The notes beneath the pieces are model-generated. The model saw only the letters and a list, made by a program, of their open reading frames with translations, searched no databases and was not told the DNA's origin. From an uncultured Pelagibacteraceae bacterium (GTDB lineage: Bacteria > Pseudomonadota > Alphaproteobacteria > Pelagibacterales > Pelagibacteraceae): a stretch of 64,000 nt of DNA. A program made the position numbers and the translations under genes. Numbering within the stretch: position 1 is the first letter of the stretch; each line of letters starts with the position of its first letter. Positions 49,267 through 59,998 of this stretch are shown here, one piece after another. The stretch is from the NCBI GenBank assembly GCA_902614905.1, contig CACMMN010000001.1, positions 32,827 through 96,826 on the forward strand, read 5' to 3'.

Positions 49267-49998
49267 TCAAAATTTTGATTTTATGGTAGTCCATAATACC
49301 TTTAAACCATAAGGAATTGACTTTAAATGAGAAACCTCATCTCCATAATGTGTTGGGATGTAAATTTCTAATATTTTCAACTTATTTTTCAAAAACTCAA
49401 TAATTATCTCAGTGTCAAAGTGGTAATAATTTGCTTTATCTTTAAAATTAATTTTTTTCAAAGAATCTACTTTAAAAGATCTATATCCAGAATGAAACTC
49501 GCTAATCTTAGAACTTAAAATTAAATTTTGAATAAATGTTAAAAAAATATTGCCTAAAAATTTATAAAAGGGCATACCCCCTTTAAGTGCACTTTTGTAA
49601 GACATCATTCTTGAACCAAAAACTGCATCCAAACTTTCATCATTAAATTTTGATATAAAATTAGGGATTTCCTCCGGAGCATATTGCCCGTCTCCATGGA
49701 CCATAATTGCATAATCATATTCATTATCTATGGCATATTGAAATGCATATTTTTGAACCCCACCATATCCAAGATTAATTGTCGAATTATATACTTTAAA
49801 TGTATAATTAAAATTTTTAGTTGCTTTTGATATCTCCTCATAGGTTTTATCTTTTGAACAATCGTTAATTATTAAAATTTCAATATGATTATTTTGGAAT
49901 ATTATTTTTGGTATTCTCTCAATAACTGAATAAATTTTTTTTTCGACATTATATGCAGGTATGAAAATTAGGATTTTTTTAATATTTGAATGGCTCAT
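49267..49998 (-). CDS. Glycosyltransferase family 2 (polyprenol-phosphate glycosyltransferase-like)
   Basis: IPAYN, NDCSKD, NLGYG, HGDGQY, FGSR, SGYR. Confidence 0.9.
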   Translation of the reverse strand: MSHSNIKKILIFIPAYNVEKKIYSVIERIPKIIFQNNHIEILIINDCSKDKTYEEISKATKNFNYTFKVYNSTINLGYGGVQKYAFQYAIDNEYDYAIMVHGDGQYAPEEIPNFISKFNDESLDAVFGSRMMSYKSALKGGMPFYKFLGNIFLTFIQNLILSSKISEFHSGYRSFKVDSLKKINFKDKANYYHFDTEIIIEFLKNKLKILEIYIPTHYGDEVSHLKSIPYGLKVLWTTIKSKF

Positions 49999-52093
49999 AT
50001 TTAAAATCTAAAATATTATTCCCTGGTGAATATTTAATACTTTTATATGTGTTCATCAATTTTTCTATAGCAACTAAATCACCATTAATTCTAGCGGTCC
50101 AAAAAATATCATAATTATCTATATAATTTAACCAACCTTCATTATTTGAGTAAAACTCAATACTAATTTTATTATTTTCAAAACTTGTAATTTTGTATTC
50201 AATATTATTTAAACTTTCAAAATTTTTTACATGCTCTATAAAACTAACTGGATCTCTAAAATTAATATTTTCTGAAAAAAAGATCCTTCTATTGCTTGTA
50301 TTTAGTCCATAAAATTCATAGACAAGATCTTTTTCATAATCTGCAATTTCTTTTAAATCGCCATTTTTTCTAAAGTAATCCCAAAAGATTTCGTTGTGGA
50401 ATTTATTACCCCAGTTTAAAAAATTATTAACTGAAAAAGTATTATCTCTAAAATAGTTATTACCATGTACTTGACTACTACTTCTGGGTTTTATTAAGTT
50501 TTTTCTTAAATTATCAATAGCTGAATACTCAAAATTTGTATTTTTGGTTTTCCATTCTTTTAAACTCCATTGAATATTTGAATTTAGAAATTGCTCACTA
50601 ACCACACTTAAAAATATAAAAACAAAAATAAAGCTATTAAGATAAATTAAATTTATTTTTCTTGAAAAAAAATAAACAACATTAATTATTAGTATTGTTA
50701 TGATTGTGGCAATTATATTAATTCTACCATCCCCAAACATCACCAATTTATTTAATGGGTAACTCAAATAATTTTCAGCAAAAATAAACCTCTTTTCATG
50801 CCAAGTATTCCAGTATGGATCGACTACATTATTTGAATAAAACCAAAGTTGTAAACTTAAAATTAAAATAAGAATTAAATTAGAAAAAAATAATATTTTT
50901 TTTAAATTAATCTTTTGCAAGCTGATATTTCTTATTTCATTTAGAAAAAAGTTTAAACTCAATAAACTCAATATTGAAATAATTGGAACTAAAAGAATAT
51001 TAATTCTTGGCCATGTTCTCATATTTTGAATGAAATCTACATGACTCCAAATAAAAGTAAAAATAATAGAGTCTTTTGATGATGCGAGTGACGTAATTAC
51101 TAAAAAAGATAATAAGGCGAATATAAATATCTTTTTTTCAAAAATATCAGTTTTATTTAAATTAGATAAAAAATAAAATAAATATCGAATAACTAAAAAA
51201 GATAGAATTATTCCAAAATAGTATCTTCCTTCAGTATTAGAAATTATTGGATAGAACCAAGATCCAAGAACATCTAAAAAATTAAAACTATGAGCGGTTG
51301 CATAGTCAAAATCATATAAATTTCTATCTTGTGTCAACTCAAGGGTTTTTGAAACACCATAAAACCAGGGTAAAGATATTAATAGAGATATAAAACTTGG
51401 AAAAAATATTTTTAAACTAAAATTAATTATTCTTTTAAAATTAAGATCTTTTGCAAATAAAATGAACAAGACATAAAAACAGACAAAAACAAAAATATAT
51501 ATAATAAAGTAAGGGTATCCTGCTGTGAAAATAAATAAAGTAGAGAAGAATATTAATAAACTAGACTTAAAAATATTTTTATTACCAGCACTGTAATTAA
51601 TACCTAATAATAAATAAGGTAGCCAACATATAGTATGTATAGCATTTGGAAACCTCAAAAAATTTGAAAATATTAAAATTGTGGGTACAAGAAGAGTAAT
51701 TAATATAATATTTTTTTTTGAAAAATAATTAAAACTTTTTAGCCACTGATATTGACCAACTAAATAAATTGAAATTCCAAAAATTGTATAAATCAAATAA
51801 TCATAAAGGGAGAATGATCCTTTAATTAATGAAATTGAGTATAGAAACCATGATGGTAAATAAAAAAACTGTGCAAAAGGATTATATATTAATGAAAATC
51901 CTGCTCCTTCAACTGGCGACCAAAACGGTAGACGACCATCTTGAATAAACTCAAATATATATTTTTTATAAGAAAAATAAATTAAATCAAAATCATTACC
52001 TATTACAATAAATTCACTTGTCATTGGAAAAAAATAAATAAATGGCCAAATGATTAATAAAAGATAGGCTATAAAAGATTTATTGTTTATCAC
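49979..52093 (-). CDS. Polytopic membrane protein, YfhO-like putative GT-C glycosyltransferase; GTG start
   Basis: GNDF acidic loop after TM1, GRLPFWSP..GAG, many TM helices, C-terminal WTARING...PGNN..F.YEP motif. Confidence 0.7.
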   Translation of the reverse strand: MINNKSFIAYLLLIIWPFIYFFPMTSEFIVIGNDFDLIYFSYKKYIFEFIQDGRLPFWSPVEGAGFSLIYNPFAQFFYLPSWFLYSISLIKGSFSLYDYLIYTIFGISIYLVGQYQWLKSFNYFSKKNIILITLLVPTILIFSNFLRFPNAIHTICWLPYLLLGINYSAGNKNIFKSSLLIFFSTLFIFTAGYPYFIIYIFVFVCFYVLFILFAKDLNFKRIINFSLKIFFPSFISLLISLPWFYGVSKTLELTQDRNLYDFDYATAHSFNFLDVLGSWFYPIISNTEGRYYFGIILSFLVIRYLFYFLSNLNKTDIFEKKIFIFALLSFLVITSLASSKDSIIFTFIWSHVDFIQNMRTWPRINILLVPIISILSLLSLNFFLNEIRNISLQKINLKKILFFSNLILILILSLQLWFYSNNVVDPYWNTWHEKRFIFAENYLSYPLNKLVMFGDGRINIIATIITILIINVVYFFSRKINLIYLNSFIFVFIFLSVVSEQFLNSNIQWSLKEWKTKNTNFEYSAIDNLRKNLIKPRSSSQVHGNNYFRDNTFSVNNFLNWGNKFHNEIFWDYFRKNGDLKEIADYEKDLVYEFYGLNTSNRRIFFSENINFRDPVSFIEHVKNFESLNNIEYKITSFENNKISIEFYSNNEGWLNYIDNYDIFWTARINGDLVAIEKLMNTYKSIKYSPGNNILDFKYEPFKY

Positions 52094-52118: not shown

Positions 52119-53120
52119 TTAAATCCATTTTGGGAAAGGTAAGCCTTTATCTTGCAGAAATTTTTTATTAAATAATTTTGAGCTATATTTATCGGATCTG
52201 TCACAAAGAATTGTCACAATAGTTTTTCCAGGCCCTAATTTTTTACCTAATTTAATTGCACCAGTAACATTGATTGCACAACTTGTTCCTAGGCTTAATC
52301 CTTCATTTTGAATTAAATCATATAATACAGGCAAAGCTTCTTTATCATCTATGCTAAATGCACCATCTATTTTGGCTTTTGCAAAGTTAGCAGTCACTCG
52401 ACTTGATCCTATTCCTTCAGTGATCGAGCTTCCAGAAGATTTTAGTTCTCCATTTTCAATATGGTTATAAAGAGATGAACCACCAGGATCTGCTAAAAAA
52501 ATTTTAATATCTTTATTTTTTTCTTTAAGATAACTACTTACTCCAGCAATAGTACCGCCAGTACCAGATGAACAAACAAAACCATCAACTTTACCTTCAG
52601 TTTGCTTCCAAATTTCTGGACCTGTTGTTTCATAATGTCCTTTTGAGTTAGCCGTGTTATCAAACTGATTAGCCCAAACCACTCCATGATTGTTAGAACT
52701 TTTTAAATCATCAGCGAGTTTTGCTGCAACTTTAACAAAATTTCCGTCATCCTTATATGGTTTTGGTGGTACTAATCTTAAATCAGCACCCATATTTCTT
52801 AACATATCTTTTTTCTCTTGTGTTTGATCTTCGTTCATAACAATAATTGTTTTATATCCAATAGAGTTACCAATTAAACATAATCCAATACCTGTATTAC
52901 CAGCAGTTCCTTCAACAATTGTCCCGCCTTTTGATATTAATTTTTTTTCTTCAGCATCTCTAATTAATGCAAGTGCAGCTCTGTCTTTAACAGAACCCCC
53001 GGGATTTAAGTATTCTGCTTTACCATAAATATTACATCCAGTTATCTCAGATGCAGCTCTCAGTTTTACTAGAGGAGTATTTCCAATACCTTCAATGAAA
53101 TTATTTTGAGGTTTGTTCAT
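52119..53120 (-). CDS. cysK: Cysteine synthase (O-acetylserine sulfhydrylase)
   Basis: IGNTPL, KAEYLNPGGSVKDR, TAGNTG, GTGGT. Confidence 0.92.
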   Translation of the reverse strand: MNKPQNNFIEGIGNTPLVKLRAASEITGCNIYGKAEYLNPGGSVKDRAALALIRDAEEKKLISKGGTIVEGTAGNTGIGLCLIGNSIGYKTIIVMNEDQTQEKKDMLRNMGADLRLVPPKPYKDDGNFVKVAAKLADDLKSSNNHGVVWANQFDNTANSKGHYETTGPEIWKQTEGKVDGFVCSSGTGGTIAGVSSYLKEKNKDIKIFLADPGGSSLYNHIENGELKSSGSSITEGIGSSRVTANFAKAKIDGAFSIDDKEALPVLYDLIQNEGLSLGTSCAINVTGAIKLGKKLGPGKTIVTILCDRSDKYSSKLFNKKFLQDKGLPFPKWI

Positions 53121-53702
53121 TTAATTTTTATCACTATCTTGTGTAATTCCATATGGTTTAAAGTTTTCATCTTGTGTAGAAACTTCACCAACATTTTTTG
53201 CTGGTATTCCAACCATTACAGAATTTTCATCAACATCTTTAGTAACAACAGCATTAGCTCCAATTTTTGCGTTTTTACCAACAACCACTGGCCCTAATAT
53301 CTGAGCACCTGATCCTACAACAACATTATCCATTAATGTTGGATGTCTTTTTGTATTTCTTTGTTCATTTGAATTTATACTTGGAGAAATTCCACCAAGA
53401 GTTACCATATGATAAATGGTTACATTGTCTCCAATTTCAGAAGTCTCACCTATAACAACCCCCATACCATGATCTATAAATAAATTTTTTCCAATCTTTG
53501 CATTAGGATGAATTTCTATTCCTGTTAAAAATCTAGAAAATTGAGAAATTATTCTTGCAACTAAATTAAATTTTGCAATAGCAAAAAAATTTGCAATTCG
53601 ATGAAAGAAAACAGCCTTTGCTCCAGGATAAGTTAATATAACACTTAACTTTGATTTAGCAGCTGGATCTCTTTTAATTATAGAATCTAAAAATTCATTC
53701 AT
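53121..53702 (-). CDS. cysE: Serine O-acetyltransferase
   Basis: RDPAA, GIEIHP, FIDHGMG, KRHPT and hexapeptide repeats. Confidence 0.95.
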
Positions 53703-53717
53703 GTTGTTTACAGTTTT

Positions 53718-54416
53718 TTATGCTTTAACTTGATTTAAAGTTAAACCCTTTAGATTAGCTGGAACAGCTACATCCATCATTTTAGGGTTAGCAAGTTTAA
53801 GGTTATTCATTATTTCTACGTATTGGTCAACAGAATTAACTTGTAACCTTGGATTATTTTTTCTCTCTGAACCAATTGTAGAATGTTTTTTGCCATTATA
53901 GTCGTGCGCAGGAAATACCATCGTATTTTCTGGCAATTTTAATAATTTGTTAAATATAGATTCGTATTGTTGTCTAGCATTGCCGTTTTGAAAATCAGTT
54001 CTTCCAGTTCCATTTATTAAAAGTGTGTCACCTGTAAAAACTCTATCGTTCATTAAATAACTGTAAGAACAATCTGTATGTCCAGGCGTGTACATTACTT
54101 TTAAATTAATATTATCAATTTTTACGTTTTCATCTTCCTTAACTCTTAAATCAACAACCTCAGACTTTGAATTTTCACCCATAATTTTTGTGCAACTTGT
54201 TCTTTCACTTAATTCGTTTAAACCAGTTATGTGATCCGCATGAATATGTGTATCTATAACTTTTACTAATTTTAATTCTAAATTATTTAAAAAATTTATG
54301 TATTGATCTGTGTGTTCTAAAACTGGATCTATGATTAAAGCTTCTCTACCTTTGCCGCTTGATAATATGTACGTATAGGTTGAAGACTTAGTATCAAATA
54401 ATTGCTCAAATATCAT
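53718..54416 (-). CDS. Persulfide (sulfur) dioxygenase, ETHE1/Sdo-type metallo-beta-lactamase fold
   Basis: MIFEQLFD..SSTYTY, IDPV, THIHADHITG, TPGHT, GRTDFQ, PAHDY, NPRL, AVPANL; start re-called to 54416. Confidence 0.85.
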   Translation of the reverse strand: MIFEQLFDTKSSTYTYILSSGKGREALIIDPVLEHTDQYINFLNNLELKLVKVIDTHIHADHITGLNELSERTSCTKIMGENSKSEVVDLRVKEDENVKIDNINLKVMYTPGHTDCSYSYLMNDRVFTGDTLLINGTGRTDFQNGNARQQYESIFNKLLKLPENTMVFPAHDYNGKKHSTIGSERKNNPRLQVNSVDQYVEIMNNLKLANPKMMDVAVPANLKGLTLNQVKA

Positions 54417-54491
54417 ATTAATGATCACTTTATAAAAAATTGCATAGCAAATCAATCTTGCATATAATTTGTTTATAAAAAGGAGAGGTAA

Positions 54492-55154
54492 ATGACTTTA
54501 AAAATAAATAGCTTAGCACCTGACTTTAAGGCTAAAACAACTATTGGTGATATATCATTTCACGAGTGGCTAGGAGACAGTTGGGGTGTTTTATTTTCAC
54601 ATCCAAAAGATTTTACTCCAGTTTGTACAACTGAACTTGGATCTTTAGCTAGAATGAAACCTGAGTTTGATAAAAGAAATGTCAAAGTTATTGGTTTAAG
54701 TGTGGATCCAGTTGCAGATCACGTTAAATGGCTGGACGACATTAAAGATGTAACAGGAATGAAACCTGATTATCCAATAATTGCAGATGAGGATCTAAAA
54801 ATTGCAAAACTTTATAATATGTTAGAGGGTGATGCAGGAACCACTTCAATGGGTAGAACTGCAGTTGATAACCAAACAGTTAGAACAGTTTTTATTATTA
54901 GACCAGATAAAAGAATTGGTTTGTTCTTAACTTATCCAATGGCAACTGGAAGAAATTTTATGGAATTATTGAGATCGATCGACTCAATGCAATTAACTGC
55001 AAAACATAAAGTAGCAACACCAGCAGATTGGAAAAAAGGTGAAGAGGTTATTATTGTTCCAGCAGTTAAGGATGATGAAGCTAAGAAATTGTTTCCTGAT
55101 GGCTGGAATGCAGTTAAACCTTATTTAAGAAAAGTACCAGATCCATCGAAGTAG
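54492..55154 (+). CDS. 1-Cys peroxiredoxin (Prx6)
   Basis: FSHPKDFTPVCTTE, YP..TGRN, ATPADW; SD AGGAG. Confidence 0.95.
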   Translation: MTLKINSLAPDFKAKTTIGDISFHEWLGDSWGVLFSHPKDFTPVCTTELGSLARMKPEFDKRNVKVIGLSVDPVADHVKWLDDIKDVTGMKPDYPIIADEDLKIAKLYNMLEGDAGTTSMGRTAVDNQTVRTVFIIRPDKRIGLFLTYPMATGRNFMELLRSIDSMQLTAKHKVATPADWKKGEEVIIVPAVKDDEAKKLFPDGWNAVKPYLRKVPDPSK

Positions 55155-55155
55155 T

Positions 55156-55809
55156 TTGGACAATAAGATTTTAATCGAACAATCTCAGCATTGGGAAAAA
55201 AGTTTCTCAAGTAAGCCTGAGATGTTTGGTTCTGAACCAAGTCACTCTGCAAAAATTGCTTTAGAAAAATTTAAAAAAAATAACGTAAAACACATCATTG
55301 AACTTGGTGCAGGACTAGGACGTGATACAATTTTTTTTGCTAAAAATTCTATTAAAGTAACTGCTTTAGATTACAGCCCAACTGCAGTTGAAATAATTAA
55401 AAATAAGTCAAACAGTTTAGGTTTAGGTGATTTGATTGAAGTTCAAACACATAACTTAAGAGAAAAATTAAATTTTACAGATAATAGTTTTGAAGGTTGT
55501 TATTCACATATGCTTTATTGTATGGCTTTTACATATTCTGATTTAGAAAATTTGAATAATGAAGTCTGCAGAGTTATTAATAAAAATTCATTAAATATTT
55601 ATACAGTTAGAAATCATTCAGATGCAGATTATAAAAAGGGCACATGTCGAGGTGAAGATTTATATGAAATGAATGGATATATTGTTCACTATTTTTCACA
55701 TGAAAAAATTAAAAAATTATTAAAAGGATTTAAAAATTTAAGTATTGATCATTTTGATGAAGGAAGTTTTCCTAGAAAATTATCATTAGTTATTAATCAA
55801 AAAATTTAG
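55156..55809 (+). CDS. Class I SAM-dependent methyltransferase; TTG start
   Basis: ELGAGLGRD, ALDYS. Confidence 0.85.
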   Translation: MDNKILIEQSQHWEKSFSSKPEMFGSEPSHSAKIALEKFKKNNVKHIIELGAGLGRDTIFFAKNSIKVTALDYSPTAVEIIKNKSNSLGLGDLIEVQTHNLREKLNFTDNSFEGCYSHMLYCMAFTYSDLENLNNEVCRVINKNSLNIYTVRNHSDADYKKGTCRGEDLYEMNGYIVHYFSHEKIKKLLKGFKNLSIDHFDEGSFPRKLSLVINQKI

Positions 55810-55810
55810 A

Positions 55811-56425
55811 ATGGAATACTTATTAATTGGTTTTTTTACTGGTCTAAGTTTAATTTTAGCACTTGGAGCGCAAAATGTATTTGTAATAGAGCAGGGTTTA
55901 AAGAGACAATATATTTTTTTAGTATGCTTAATTTGCTCAATTTCTGATTATTTATTAATATTTTTAGGTATTATTCTATTTGAATATTTCCAAAGTTACT
56001 TTAACCAAATAATTGAACTTATATTAAATATTCTATTATTATTATTTTTATTACATTTTATTTATTCTAAAATAAAATTAAGTTTTTCAAATGTTGATTT
56101 TTCAACAAATAAAACTAACGAAACTTTTAAAAGTATTTTCTTAAAGACCTTGGGCTTTACTTATTTAAATCCGCACGTTTACTCGGATACAGTTTTTTTT
56201 TTAGGAAATTTCTCTAAAAATTTTGCTTTAATTAACAAAATATATTTTGGATTAGGTGCTACGATATCTTCTTTTTTATTTTTTTTTACTATTGGTTATT
56301 TAGCAAATTATTTGTCTAAATATTTAAATAATAAAAGAACTTGGTTTTATATAAACATATTAGTCATTCTTTTTATGACTGTCTTGTCTTTATATGTTTT
56401 AAATACTATTCTTGATTTCTATTGA
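55811..56425 (+). CDS. LysE/ArgO-family exporter
   Basis: ILALGAQNVFVIEQGL, TYLNPHVYSDT. Confidence 0.9.
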   Translation: MEYLLIGFFTGLSLILALGAQNVFVIEQGLKRQYIFLVCLICSISDYLLIFLGIILFEYFQSYFNQIIELILNILLLLFLLHFIYSKIKLSFSNVDFSTNKTNETFKSIFLKTLGFTYLNPHVYSDTVFFLGNFSKNFALINKIYFGLGATISSFLFFFTIGYLANYLSKYLNNKRTWFYINILVILFMTVLSLYVLNTILDFY

Positions 56426-56492
56426 TATAGAACACTTTTAAACGTCAATTTAGACCCATTGGTTTTTAAAAAAAAATAACTAAATAAGTAGT

Positions 56493-57155
56493 ATGAACAA
56501 TTTAGAAAAACATTACATGCCAAATAACTTTAGCGATAAAGTTGCTTTAGGCTTTACTAAGTTTTTAAGATTTCTAGCCGATACTTTTTTTAAGAAAAGA
56601 TACGGCCATAGAGCAGTTGTTTTAGAAACAGTTGCTGCAGTACCTGGAATGGTAGCTGGAATGCTAATTCACTTAAAATCATTAAGAAAAATGGAAGATG
56701 ATAAAGGGTGGATTAAAATTCTTTTAGATGAAGCAGAAAATGAAAGAATGCATTTAATGACTTTTATTCATGTTGCAAAGCCAACATGGCTAGAAAGAGT
56801 TATTATTTTGATGGCTCAATTTATTTTTATTGTTACATACGCTATCATTTATTTAGTATCTCAAAGAACTGCTCACAGAATTGTTGGATATTTTGAAGAA
56901 GAAGCTGTTAGAAGTTACACTGAATATTTACACGAATTAGAAACCGGCAAAATAAAAGATGAGCCAGCTCCAGAAGTTGCAATAAATTATTGGAACCTAC
57001 CTTTGCATGCTACATTAAAAGATGTAGTGAGAGTTATACGAGATGATGAAGCTGGACACCGTGATGTAAACCACAGTTTTGCAAACATCATTAACGAAAA
57101 AAAATACCCTAAAAAAGAAGAAAATATTAGTTCTAAAGATTTAAGTAGAGAATAA
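56493..57155 (+). CDS. aox: Alternative oxidase (ubiquinol:O2 oxidoreductase, di-iron)
   Basis: LETVAAVPGM, EAENERMHL, YFEEEAVRSY, DEAGHR iron-ligand motifs. Confidence 0.96.
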   Translation: MNNLEKHYMPNNFSDKVALGFTKFLRFLADTFFKKRYGHRAVVLETVAAVPGMVAGMLIHLKSLRKMEDDKGWIKILLDEAENERMHLMTFIHVAKPTWLERVIILMAQFIFIVTYAIIYLVSQRTAHRIVGYFEEEAVRSYTEYLHELETGKIKDEPAPEVAINYWNLPLHATLKDVVRVIRDDEAGHRDVNHSFANIINEKKYPKKEENISSKDLSRE

Positions 57156-57874: not shown

Positions 57875-59998
57875 ATGAATAGGGCAATAAAAATATTTTA
57901 TCTAATTTTATTATTTCTAAGCACATTTCATTTTAAATCTATAGCGGAGCCAACCTTTGTACAAAGTAAATCGATTGCTTCGGCCTTTTATTTAGGACTT
58001 AACTTTAATAATGATGGTACAAAAATGTATACTGTAAGAAGTGGAGGAACAACGGATGCAGTTATCGAATATATATTAACTATCGCATATGACATTTCAA
58101 CGGCAACCGTAAATAATACTAAAATAGTACATAGAAGTGGAGGTAATGGTTCTCATGTACCTTCACAAGTAGTGTTCAATAACGATGGAACAAAAATGTT
58201 TATTGTTAACCATGCCGGTGTAAAGACAATAGATTACTGGTCACTAAGTACTGCATTTGATATTTCGACTGCTACATTTGATGATGAGTATGATATTTCT
58301 GGTCAAGAAATAAGAGCAAATTCAATTGCATTTAATGATGATGGTACCAGAATGGTTGTTGCTGGTGTAGGAAATGATTCACAAGTGCGTATTCATGAAT
58401 ATTCACTAAGCACAGGATTTGATCTTAGCTCCACAGTTACTCATCTTAATACTGAAGACCTAATTTCTTTTCAAAATCACATAGATGGAGTTACTTTTAA
58501 TTACGATGGTACTAAAATGTATACCATTACACATATGAATAAAGATGGAACAGAAGCACAAGATTTGATGTCTCAGTTTAAATTAACTACACCTTATGAT
58601 GTTTCTACTTTATCACTTGAAGGCACCTATACTGTAAGTTCTGTTAGTGGAGATTCAAGAGAAGTTGTGTTTAGTAATGATGGAAGTAAAATGTTTATCA
58701 TTGATGATGATAATGATAAAGTTCATGAATTTAACCTAAGTTGTAATTGGAGCGTAATTGATGGTGCTTGTGATGATCCAATAACAACTTCTGATGGGGG
58801 TAAAGATATTTTAAGCTCAATCGAGTCTCAAACTGCAACAGCAAAACAAATTGCTATTCAGGCAAGCACTCCAGTTCTTAACCGTATGTATTGGTTAAGA
58901 AGACACAGAACAAGCGATCAATTAAGTAATCAAAAAATTAAATTTAACTTTCCAAATAAAACAATAGCATCTCTAGCAAAAGTTTTTCCAATAGCTGAAA
59001 AATCAAATAATACTTTAAACAAATTGTCTGACAGCTGGTCATTTTGGAGTGAGGGCAGTGTGAGCTTTGGAAGGACTGGTGACACATCTTCTTCAGCATC
59101 AAAAGATATAAATAGCACTGGTATAACCATTGGAATGGACAAAAAAATTAGTGAAAATAAATTATATGGCTACGCCCTTAGGTTTGGCAATGATGAAGTT
59201 GATATAGGATCATCTGGGACTAATTTAGATACAGAATCTTTTAGTTTATCACTTTATGGAACTTTTCCTCATAATGAAGAAAGATTTACAGAAAGTATTA
59301 TTGGAATAAGTACTTTAAAAACTGATCATGTAAGAGTAGGCGGGGGAAATAGAAGAACTGGTGAGAGAGATGGGGCGCAAGTTTTTGGATCAATTAATTA
59401 TGTTACTAAATATAAAAAAAATAATTTTGTTATAGATCCTAATATTAGAATTGATTTGAGTTACACAGAATTATCCAAATATCGTGAAAAAGGAGTTGCT
59501 GCACTAGTATACAATAAACAAACTGTTGAAACTGGCATGGTATCCACAGGGTTTACAATAAGTGATATTTTAGATTTTGATACTTTTACTTTTAAATCTT
59601 ATGGTGGCTTAGAACTTGGTTTAGATTTTAGCCCATCGTCAGATGCTACATATCGTTATCTCTCTGAAACTACAGAATTCACAAAAGCAATAGATCAAGA
59701 TTCTAAAAATTTAAGAGCGAATATTGGATTTGATTTAATAAATGAAAACGGTTTATCAATAATGACTATTTATGAAAGAAATCAGAGTGATAATTCTCAT
59801 AGTGATACTTTATATTTTGGTTTGGGCTATGTGCCATCAGATGACATTGAATATGCAATGAACTTAGATAATAATAAAGCTTATTTAAGCTACAATAGAA
59901 ATTTAAAAGGTTTTGATATCAGGGTGAATTCAAATTATGATTTAATGAGTTCAATTCCTGATTATGGTGCAACTATTGAGCTTGTTAGTACTTTTTAA
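57875..59998 (+). CDS. Autotransporter-type outer-membrane protein with a repeat (beta-propeller-like) passenger
   Basis: Signal peptide; five F(N/S)xDG(T/S)(K/R)M repeats; WSFWSEG...GITIGMDK...YGYALRFG barrel; terminal Phe. Confidence 0.82.
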   Translation: MNRAIKIFYLILLFLSTFHFKSIAEPTFVQSKSIASAFYLGLNFNNDGTKMYTVRSGGTTDAVIEYILTIAYDISTATVNNTKIVHRSGGNGSHVPSQVVFNNDGTKMFIVNHAGVKTIDYWSLSTAFDISTATFDDEYDISGQEIRANSIAFNDDGTRMVVAGVGNDSQVRIHEYSLSTGFDLSSTVTHLNTEDLISFQNHIDGVTFNYDGTKMYTITHMNKDGTEAQDLMSQFKLTTPYDVSTLSLEGTYTVSSVSGDSREVVFSNDGSKMFIIDDDNDKVHEFNLSCNWSVIDGACDDPITTSDGGKDILSSIESQTATAKQIAIQASTPVLNRMYWLRRHRTSDQLSNQKIKFNFPNKTIASLAKVFPIAEKSNNTLNKLSDSWSFWSEGSVSFGRTGDTSSSASKDINSTGITIGMDKKISENKLYGYALRFGNDEVDIGSSGTNLDTESFSLSLYGTFPHNEERFTESIIGISTLKTDHVRVGGGNRRTGERDGAQVFGSINYVTKYKKNNFVIDPNIRIDLSYTELSKYREKGVAALVYNKQTVETGMVSTGFTISDILDFDTFTFKSYGGLELGLDFSPSSDATYRYLSETTEFTKAIDQDSKNLRANIGFDLINENGLSIMTIYERNQSDNSHSDTLYFGLGYVPSDDIEYAMNLDNNKAYLSYNRNLKGFDIRVNSNYDLMSSIPDYGATIELVSTF

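Follow-up and report, generated by a model that had tools for sequence, protein, structure and literature searches.

The 64,000-nucleotide stretch of DNA analysed here (the window; contig CACMMN010000001.1, G000:C1:32827-96826 in the numbering of this work) comes from an uncultured bacterium of the SAR11 family Pelagibacteraceae and contains, between positions 52119 and 57155, genes for a persulfide dioxygenase (PDO; gene pdo, equivalently sdo), a serine O-acetyltransferase (cysE) and an O-acetylserine sulfhydrylase (cysK), which diverge from genes for a 1-Cys peroxiredoxin (prx), an S-adenosylmethionine (SAM) methyltransferase (MT), a LysE-type exporter (lysE) and an alternative oxidase (AOX; gene aox). 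The best-supported interpretation, drawn from comparison with related sequences, is that this region shows, in reduced form, a thiol/sulfane-sulfur locus that is conserved in SAR11 and has the general order prx(-MT)/(sqr)-pdo-(Cys-rich peptide)-cysE-cysK, where the slash marks the junction ahead of the cysteine genes, parentheses enclose parts that vary and sqr encodes a sulfide:quinone oxidoreductase (SQR). The form is considered reduced because the sqr gene and the Cys-rich micro-gene of sister lineages are missing here. The enzymes are known ones in a new arrangement, not the seven-gene system put forward in a preliminary description of the sequence, and no description of the cluster was found in the literature on SAR11 or Pelagibacter and persulfide dioxygenase, SQR, cysteine synthase, alternative oxidase or metallothionein, nor in that on persulfide dioxygenase together with cysK. 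That the window is a mosaic on a Pelagibacter backbone, in which the slot ahead of cysE holds a pdo-cysE-cysK unit divergent from prx-MT, is a proposition to which we assign about an even chance.

Conservation of the locus in related genomes

Relatives of the locus were collected with sdo as the query, giving 80 loci with flanks of up to 9 kb each, which were searched with all proteins of the window and with additional proteins found in the relatives; layouts were counted in the 58 loci that carry an sdo of the window type (ETHE1-type), the denominators being the loci with enough flank. Frequencies refer to 301 evenly drawn genomes of the family, including that of the window (G000) and the unpublished G223, on which alone no claim depends, and further regions around cysK, aox and prx were fetched from other genomes. 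The nearest public relatives of the window are Pelagibacteraceae single-cell genomes. Its own assembly comprises 1.01 Mb in 37 contigs and is 81.6% complete, so that genes missing from it are reported as not found rather than as absent.

The divergent arrangement of prx and sdo is kept in 48 of 49 of these loci, and 44 of 53 have cysE-cysK downstream of sdo; cysE is paired with cysK in every layout seen. Compared with this core, the MT gene follows prx in 30 of 51 loci, lysE abuts MT in 4 of 28, and 9 of 44 have aox no more than 9 kb from sdo; the linkage of all seven genes is thus not kept in relatives. The preliminary description had itself named a loss of linkage of aox, MT and lysE to the sdo-cysE-cysK unit in relatives, along with a lack of co-induction by reduced sulfur, as the outcome that would count against it; by the measure of linkage aox and lysE drop out, MT is retained in part, as a frequent but not constant companion of prx, and prx stands as the divergent partner of sdo. 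Overall, what survives of the earlier interpretation is the conserved pdo-cysE-cysK/prx core and, in part, MT, and what falls away is the inclusion of lysE and aox; the palindrome of the divergent gap is not conserved as such (see below).

A role of the core in sulfide or persulfide chemistry is supported by 11 of 49 loci in which prx and sdo are separated by a further gene on the strand of sdo. This gene encodes a 413-aa flavoprotein that matches human SQOR (E 2e-99) and is a type II SQR; the species concerned therefore carry sqr-pdo-cysE-cysK. Because relatives hold this operon in the same slot, the proposed tie of the sdo-cysE-cysK unit to reduced sulfur gains support. In a tree of 64 sdo proteins all prx-linked sdo sequences, that of the window included, fall into one clade (support 100/91), and the SQR state occurs at at least five separate places, always in the same slot, a scattered distribution which would fit either repeated loss from an ancient sqr-pdo arrangement or recurrent exchange. 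The SQR gene of one locus lies at L015:7724-8965, the same slot is occupied in L012, L016-L020, L027, L032, L037, L071 and L106, and the SQR-bearing loci belong to surface-ocean SAR11 single-cell genomes, in which SQR is always found between prx and pdo.

Among the 301 family genomes, sdo was found in 113, cysK in 204, prx in 66 and aox in 23, and an SQR of the mitochondrial type in 2. Coordinates were compared by hand in the 35 sampled genomes whose sdo is at least 69% identical to that of the window, a set that spans genera labelled g1, g4, g9, g11, g13, g18 and g19: prx is adjacent to sdo in 32, 21 have cysK on the same contig at a distance of up to 2 kb, and aox lies within 3 kb in 4. The cysK gene is on another contig in 3 of these genomes and has no listed match (E <=1e-90) in 11, which are mostly incomplete genomes or have sdo near a contig end. 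Two of the sampled genomes, G182 and G229, are near-complete and carry an sdo that is 97-99% identical to that of the window. A different juxtaposition, cysE-cysK-sdo, was found in G094.

Within the genus of the window PDO was detected in 82 of 86 sampled genomes, most of which carry other types, either flanked by DUF4396 and thioredoxin genes or fused to a rhodanese domain, at distances from cysK of 7 kb to hundreds of kb. Three forms of the protein coexist in the genus, namely the short prx-linked form, a form of about 228 aa accompanied by DUF4396 and thioredoxin, and a PDO-rhodanese form of about 342 aa (loci L064-L066, L078, L080, L081, L084, L087, L093 and L094).

The second part that the window lacks is a Cys-rich, metallothionein-like open reading frame (ORF) of 36-44 aa, which separates pdo from cysE in 30 of the 47 loci holding both genes, in a gap of approximately 195 bp and in the direction of the operon, and in which 11 Cys residues are invariant across 19 diverged copies (examples in Table 1). 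The window, where the corresponding gap spans 53703-53717, and its nearest kin are without this ORF and have gaps of 15-19 bp, and scanning the assembly of the window's genome for small Cys-rich ORFs yielded nothing. Pfam gave no match to the peptide at E <=1, and only 2 database proteins represent it; a tblastn search of 50,697 phage records gave no match, although the low-complexity filter of BLAST may hide such sequence.

Proteins encoded at the locus

All seven gene calls of the preliminary description are confirmed by the ORF list and by family scans, and the gaps it reported (0 bp between cysK and cysE, 15 bp between cysE and sdo, 1 bp between prx and MT and 1 bp between MT and lysE) are correct (Table 1).

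Table 1. Features of the locus in the window, with examples of the Cys-rich micro-ORF in relatives.
Feature	Position	Strand	Remarks
cysK, O-acetylserine sulfhydrylase (PRK10717 type)	52119-53120	-	PALP; NF007989 514.6 bits (cut-off 387)
cysE, serine O-acetyltransferase	53121-53702	-	0-bp gap to cysK; Hexapep domains
Type I (ETHE1-like) persulfide dioxygenase	53718-54416	-	15 bp upstream of cysE; PF00753
prx/sdo divergent gap, 75 bp	54417-54491	.	palindrome TTGCATAGCAA at 54440-54450
1-Cys (Prx6-type) peroxiredoxin	54492-55154	+	AhpC-TSA and 1-cysPrx_C domains
Small-molecule SAM methyltransferase	55156-55809	+	related to N-terminal half of MduS
LysE/ArgO-like exporter	55811-56425	+	PF01810 67 bits
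Alternative oxidase (aox)	56493-57155	+	PF01786 279 bits; 67 bp after lysE
Micro-ORF examples in relatives	L008:9744-9860, L015:9748-9858, L106:7500-7631

The CysK protein is an O-acetylserine sulfhydrylase: it exceeds the curated family cut-off, its translation shows the PLP-lysine motif SVKDR, and its nearest structures are entries named cysteine synthase (PDB 5i7w, 5jis and 5jjc, E ~1e-121). Assignment as a cystathionine beta-synthase was rejected, the scores for that family being far lower (TIGR01137, 276.8 bits against a cut-off of 510). CysE is identified as a serine O-acetyltransferase by its hexapeptide repeats and by an equivalog score that exceeds the cut-off marginally for TIGR01172 (213.9 against 210.65 bits) and more clearly for NF041874 (226.9 against 150).

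By fold and motif the third protein of this strand belongs to the type I persulfide dioxygenases, with glutathione persulfide (GSSH) dioxygenase activity predicted. Its nearest structure is PDB 4ysb (E 1.2e-68 over residues 1-222), it also matches human ETHE1 (4chl) and the Arabidopsis protein 2gcu, and its DTHIHADH, GHT and GD positions are identical to those of 4ysb in the alignment; the HxHxDH motif and the downstream His and Asp are residues that we take to be the metal ligands. Compared with the PDO-rhodanese fusions, the window protein has no rhodanese domain. The longest ORF for sdo would begin at TTG 54455 and leave a divergent gap of 36 bp, and the start at ATG 54416 leaves one of 75 bp; the latter is preferred because the 4ysb alignment begins at residue 1 of the ATG form.

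The peroxiredoxin is a Prx6-type 1-Cys enzyme by its domains and by its single Cys, which lies within PVCTTE and is accompanied by no resolving Cys, and its nearest structures are 6p0w, 7kuu, yeast mitochondrial Prx1 and PRDX6. The AOX translation contains the di-iron ExxH motifs ERMH and EAGH and is a member of its family. For the exporter only the broad PF01810 family is satisfied: the best matches are lysine and arginine exporters, and assignment to either equivalog was rejected since the scores fall below the cut-offs (TIGR00948, 133.7 against 213.65 bits; NF006801, 112 against 298).

The methyltransferase matches the MduS model NF045649 (E 3.9e-71, 239.8 bits) below its cut-off of 380 and over profile positions 4-211 of 338 only, the protein ending at 217 aa; assignment as the MduS selenoprotein was accordingly rejected, the C-terminal DUF2284/selenocysteine half being missing. 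Membership in MddH is not supported as far as family models can show: no Ubie_methyltran or UbiE model matched at E <=0.001. An AlphaFold2 model had a pLDDT of 55.9 when built from a shallow alignment and of 96 with 46 family sequences, and a Foldseek comparison of the model with the PDB returned generic class I methyltransferases and no decisive substrate class, with TehB (in the top ten), a heterocyclic-toxin methyltransferase of M. tuberculosis and Ecm18 among the matches; since the modelled fold is generic, no substrate can be read from it. Family fusions are more suggestive. Among 150 listed cluster representatives the MT domain was found fused to rhodanese (P0131), DUF2284 (P0123), a CMD/AhpD-like domain (P0128) and TSCPD (P0133), each type as a single example, and the DUF2284 fusion is MduS-like and related to the ArsM/DUF2284 selenoprotein model. 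All of these partners are domains that bind thiols, persulfides or metals, which makes it plausible that the substrate of the family, and of the window MT, is a small compound of sulfur, selenium or a metalloid. The neighbourhoods of 44 distant family members (85 ORFs scanned) gave scattered hints only, with CMD found twice, ArsR twice, DsrE once, DUF2284 once and Pyr_redox_2 four times. Cys115 and Cys122 of the MT are invariant in SAR11 copies and are present in 31 of 46 family members.

The divergent intergenic region

If sdo begins at ATG 54416, the divergent gap measures 75 bp as first described, and it contains the palindrome TTGCATAGCAA, but a role of the palindrome as a shared control element does not survive comparison with relatives. 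Among 45 prx-sdo gap sequences, 39 of them distinct, the perfect palindrome is retained in 21 of the 39, its right arm is among the least conserved positions of the gap and its left arm shows no compensating change. The window contains four copies of the motif TTGCNNNGCAA where 0.83 would be expected, a count of four being reached in 1 of 100 shuffles, and the other three copies all lie within ORFs; a shared operator was rejected on these grounds.

The near-invariant blocks of the 39 distinct gaps are instead TATAAAAAA, TTGCAT, ATCAATCTT and TATAAT. A sigma-70 consensus scan found 15 sites, against 29.6 in shuffles; none of the 15 lies in the 75-bp gap. By eye the gap shows TTGCAT-17-TATAAT, in which TTGCAT fits the -35 consensus TTGACA at 3 of 6 positions, and therefore no promoter is claimed; that the blocks represent two overlapping divergent promoters is a guess. 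The terminator scan called none between lysE and aox and found one terminator-like site, on the minus strand, inside MT. A search of the window and four loci with Rfam gave 0 matches and thus no riboswitch. The longer prx-sqr gaps (131-134 bp; L012, L015-L020 and L037) differ from the prx-sdo gap of SQR-less loci and hold a conserved inverted repeat, TAAGA-N6-TCTTA, within a conserved block upstream of sqr, which could be a candidate regulatory site.

Genomic backbone and neighbouring genes

Relatives share a backbone order hisD ... lysE ... cysE-cysK ... SnoaL, on which the junction ahead of cysE is occupied in different ways: lysE/cysE-cysK without prx, MT or sdo (L083, L088 and L094), prx/cysE-cysK (L107), lysE-MFS-racemase-MT-prx/cysE-cysK without sdo (L105), MT-prx/sdo-cysE-cysK (the window and many others) and, in another genus, MT-prx/sqr-sdo-cysE-cysK (L106).

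In the window MT, lysE and aox follow prx in direct succession, and with a gap of 1 bp lysE is probably co-transcribed with MT. This contact appears to be a local circumstance, however: lysE is found anywhere within 8-9 kb upstream in 23 of 44 loci, and it touches MT in the window only because the racemase, MFS, hydrolase or glycine-betaine-binding protein genes that separate the two elsewhere are missing. Since lysE also stands beside cysE-cysK where prx, MT and sdo are missing, its proposed membership in the system is not sustained, and gene order identifies it as a backbone neighbour of the genus.

The inclusion of aox fares no better, and its distribution marks it as a patchy accessory gene and not a conserved member. 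The loci in which it lies near sdo all fall in one 16-row subclade of the tree (support 98/88). Elsewhere aox occupies the hisD-lysE interval (L083 and L084), the lysE-cysE interval (L085 and L086) or unrelated surroundings (L089-L092, L097 and L098). In genus g5, where sdo was found in 2 of 87 genomes, prx in 1 of 87 and aox in 1 of 87, the three genes occur together within 19 kb on one contig of G004 (G004:C3:23364-42000; L103 and L104), which could reflect shared acquisition or a binning artefact.

Directly downstream of cysK lies a 704-aa ORF without a Pfam or NCBIfam match (49979-52093, minus strand), and after it come genes for a GT2 glycosyltransferase and an NAD-dependent sugar epimerase/dehydratase. 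L005 was the only one of the 80 loci in which this ORF was detected, with 79% identity. On the other side of the locus, a 707-aa autotransporter with the beta-domain PF03797 is encoded at 57875-59998 (plus strand), and the same small genome carries paralogues at C1:165238-166437 and three on C17.

A proposed division of sulfur between capture and disposal

Being unable to reduce sulfate, SAR11 cells are considered to depend on reduced sulfur in organic form. The preliminary description had stated that the window contains no sqr, which is borne out, and tblastn and assembly searches found none in the 81.6%-complete assembly either. The searches it had recommended for other sulfur genes gave three rhodanese loci, together with a 3-mercaptopyruvate-sulfurtransferase (3-MST)-like protein below the cut-off (208 against 250 bits), and no SBP56 methanethiol oxidase was found in the assembly. 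The same genome encodes AprA (993 bits, above the cut-off) and a glutathione synthetase domain, and no match to the NIR_SIR or PAPS_reduct families was found in the assembly, that is, no sulfite reductase and no 3'-phosphoadenosine-5'-phosphosulfate (PAPS) reductase.

From the spacing of the genes and the families of their products we infer co-transcription, likely substrates and a physiological role for the locus, in which the divergent junction ahead of cysE would serve as a slot that gathers redox and sulfur genes. CysE and CysK would fix free sulfide into cysteine, and PDO would oxidise surplus sulfane sulfur, in the form of glutathione persulfide, to sulfite, which would probably be passed on to AprA, a possible sulfite sink in SAR11. 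Because no sulfite or PAPS reductase was found, this sulfite could not return to sulfide by the usual route, so that PDO would constitute a disposal branch and CysK a capture branch, with the operon splitting reduced sulfur between the two. The peroxiredoxin and MT would be conserved companions, probably engaged in peroxide or thiol/chalcogen chemistry, and LysE and AOX would be neighbours by genome history. The SQR-bearing variants argue for sulfide as the relevant species, and the Cys-rich peptide and the partners of the MT family would also fit a role in metal or thiol stress.

For members without SQR a further step can be imagined, in which the sulfenic acid of the 1-Cys peroxiredoxin would be resolved by HS- and the resulting sulfane sulfur handed to glutathione for PDO. 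Such a reaction, in which a sulfenic acid and HS- yield a persulfide, is described for the 1-Cys peroxiredoxin MtAhpE (PMC9538486). By analogy, a branch of SAR11 might possess an undescribed operon for handling sulfide, (sqr)-pdo-(Cys-rich peptide)-cysE-cysK divergent from prx-MT, which in members without SQR would provide peroxide-driven, quinone-independent sulfide oxidation beside fixation by CysK, a suggestion that we regard as improbable.

Alternative interpretations

Several observations weigh against the proposed capture and disposal operon. Its co-transcription is deduced from the gaps of 15 and 0 bp, and the relatives compared are kin within one family rather than independent sequences, among which conserved order is weak evidence of function because SAR11 genomes share much of their gene order. 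The sdo gene is without cysE-cysK downstream in 9 of 53 loci, and the layouts that place prx or lysE beside cysE-cysK without sdo show that the parts work without each other; moreover, PDO in most genomes of the genus is 7-30 kb or more away from cysK, in another context (DUF4396-sdo-trx) or as a rhodanese fusion. No gene for a persulfide-sensing regulator was found nearby, the consensus scan predicted neither a promoter in the gap nor a terminator between lysE and aox, and no SQR or methanethiol oxidase was found in the assembly as a source of persulfide. In strain HTCC1062 sulfur limitation did not upregulate cysK or cysE (PMC5069961).

A rival reading is that the junction upstream of cysE is simply a hot spot of gain and loss, at which pdo, prx, MT, lysE and aox act alone and without coupling to cysteine synthesis. 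Consistent with this view, the same stretch in relatives contains unrelated genes (racemase, MFS, OpuAC, alpha/beta hydrolase, cupin, flavodoxin and DUF4396), every sub-combination of the parts exists, and PDO is located away from cysK in most genomes of the genus. Random insertion does not, however, explain why sdo and sqr always share the strand of cysE and lie immediately upstream at short distances, why the prx-sdo adjacency is almost invariant, why cysK and sdo adjoin a second, independent time in G094, or why 30 of 47 loci have a Cys-rich peptide gene placed in the same direction between pdo and cysE, and pure juxtaposition is therefore considered unlikely. The same peptide, with its 11 invariant Cys residues, invites the alternative that the locus supplies thiols under metal or oxidative stress, such that an ancestral metallothionein-like peptide was combined with a supply of cysteine, the window having lost the peptide gene, while PDO clears persulfide by-products of a high cysteine flux and the peroxiredoxin and the TehB/MduS-like MT deal with peroxide and metalloids. 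The fusions and neighbours of the MT family (DUF2284, which is predicted to bind metal, ArsR, an ArsR-LMWPc fusion and the relative of the ArsM/DUF2284 selenoprotein), the presence of TehB among its structural neighbours, and the cupredoxin, flavodoxin and DUF4396 genes in the same slot of relatives would all accord with such a role. Yet sulfide itself is indicated by the SQR insertions, pdo-cysE-cysK is kept without the peptide in the window and in 16 other loci, and the peptide, a putative metal binder, lacks a Pfam match, which leaves this alternative with rather a low probability.

The original proposal, in which all seven genes form one system that assimilates sulfide, burns or exports the excess and respires through a sulfide-insensitive AOX, is very unlikely. 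The seven genes are contiguous with tiny gaps both in the window and in its nearest kin (L003-L005), no terminator-like site was called between lysE and aox, a hand comparison of coordinates places aox less than 10 kb from cysK in 8 of the 23 sampled genomes that carry it, and sdo, prx and aox share a contig in G004 although each is rare in that genus. Against this, aox is far less frequent in the family than sdo or cysK (23 genomes, compared with 113 and 204), its proximity to sdo is confined to one subclade, and it stands apart from all of these genes in g12, g17 and several g1 genomes; lysE is mostly parted from MT by other genes, and nothing links LysE, whose closest matches are amino acid exporters below their cut-offs, to sulfur compounds. 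The reduced form of the conserved pdo-cysE-cysK/prx locus remains the preferred interpretation.

Comparison with known systems

The mitochondrial sulfide oxidation unit consists of SQOR and ETHE1, and AOX serves as a sulfide-insensitive oxidase in some eukaryotes. The SAR11 locus resembles this unit in that its SQR and PDO are the closest relatives in sequence of human SQOR and of ETHE1, and in the window genome an aox gene lies 2.1 kb away; it differs in that the AOX linkage is not conserved, that the cluster contains no thiosulfate sulfurtransferase, and that it is a bacterial operon coupled to cysteine synthesis. A PDO in the context of sulfur assimilation is also encountered in PRF, a PDO-rhodanese fusion of Burkholderia phytofirmans (PDB 5ve3-5ve5), which Motl and colleagues reportedly proposed in 2017 to function in that process. 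The window PDO is a sequence relative of PRF (E ~1e-51), and other members of the genus carry such fusions; in contrast to PRF, however, the product of the window PDO would be unable to re-enter cysteine by the usual route, no sulfite reductase having been found.

The window MT shares with MduS the methyltransferase half but not the DUF2284/selenocysteine half, its model has a weak fold similarity to TehB-type methyltransferases, and by these resemblances it may methylate small sulfur, selenium or tellurium species. No family-model match at E <=0.001 connects it with MddH, the S-methyltransferase for H2S and methanethiol (MeSH), which belongs to the UbiE/COG2226 family (PMC11445057).

Among described bacterial systems, the SQR-PDO pairs that Xia et al. 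(2017; PMC5702731) describe in heterotrophic bacteria are like the present locus in having a type I PDO, with a type II SQR directly upstream in the relatives of the window and the conversion of sulfide through persulfide to sulfite as the chemistry expected to be shared. They are unlike it in that the PDO of the window is joined to cysE-cysK and faces a 1-Cys peroxiredoxin, with no SQR found and no regulator nearby. The same paper calls PDO and SQR rare in SAR11; in the genomes sampled here, where PDO is found in 113 of 301 and SQR in 2 of 301, this no longer holds for PDO.

Implications for SAR11 sulfur metabolism

The locus gives no support to a new AOX-based system of respiratory protection. 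If the route from peroxiredoxin to PDO were to prove true, cells blind to sulfate could use and buffer inorganic sulfide in oxic water. Irrespective of that route, a conserved operon that couples genes for PDO and sulfide metabolism to cysteine synthesis, and that in some species includes an SQR of the mitochondrial type, suggests that part of SAR11 manages inorganic sulfide and sulfane sulfur, as resources or as hazards.

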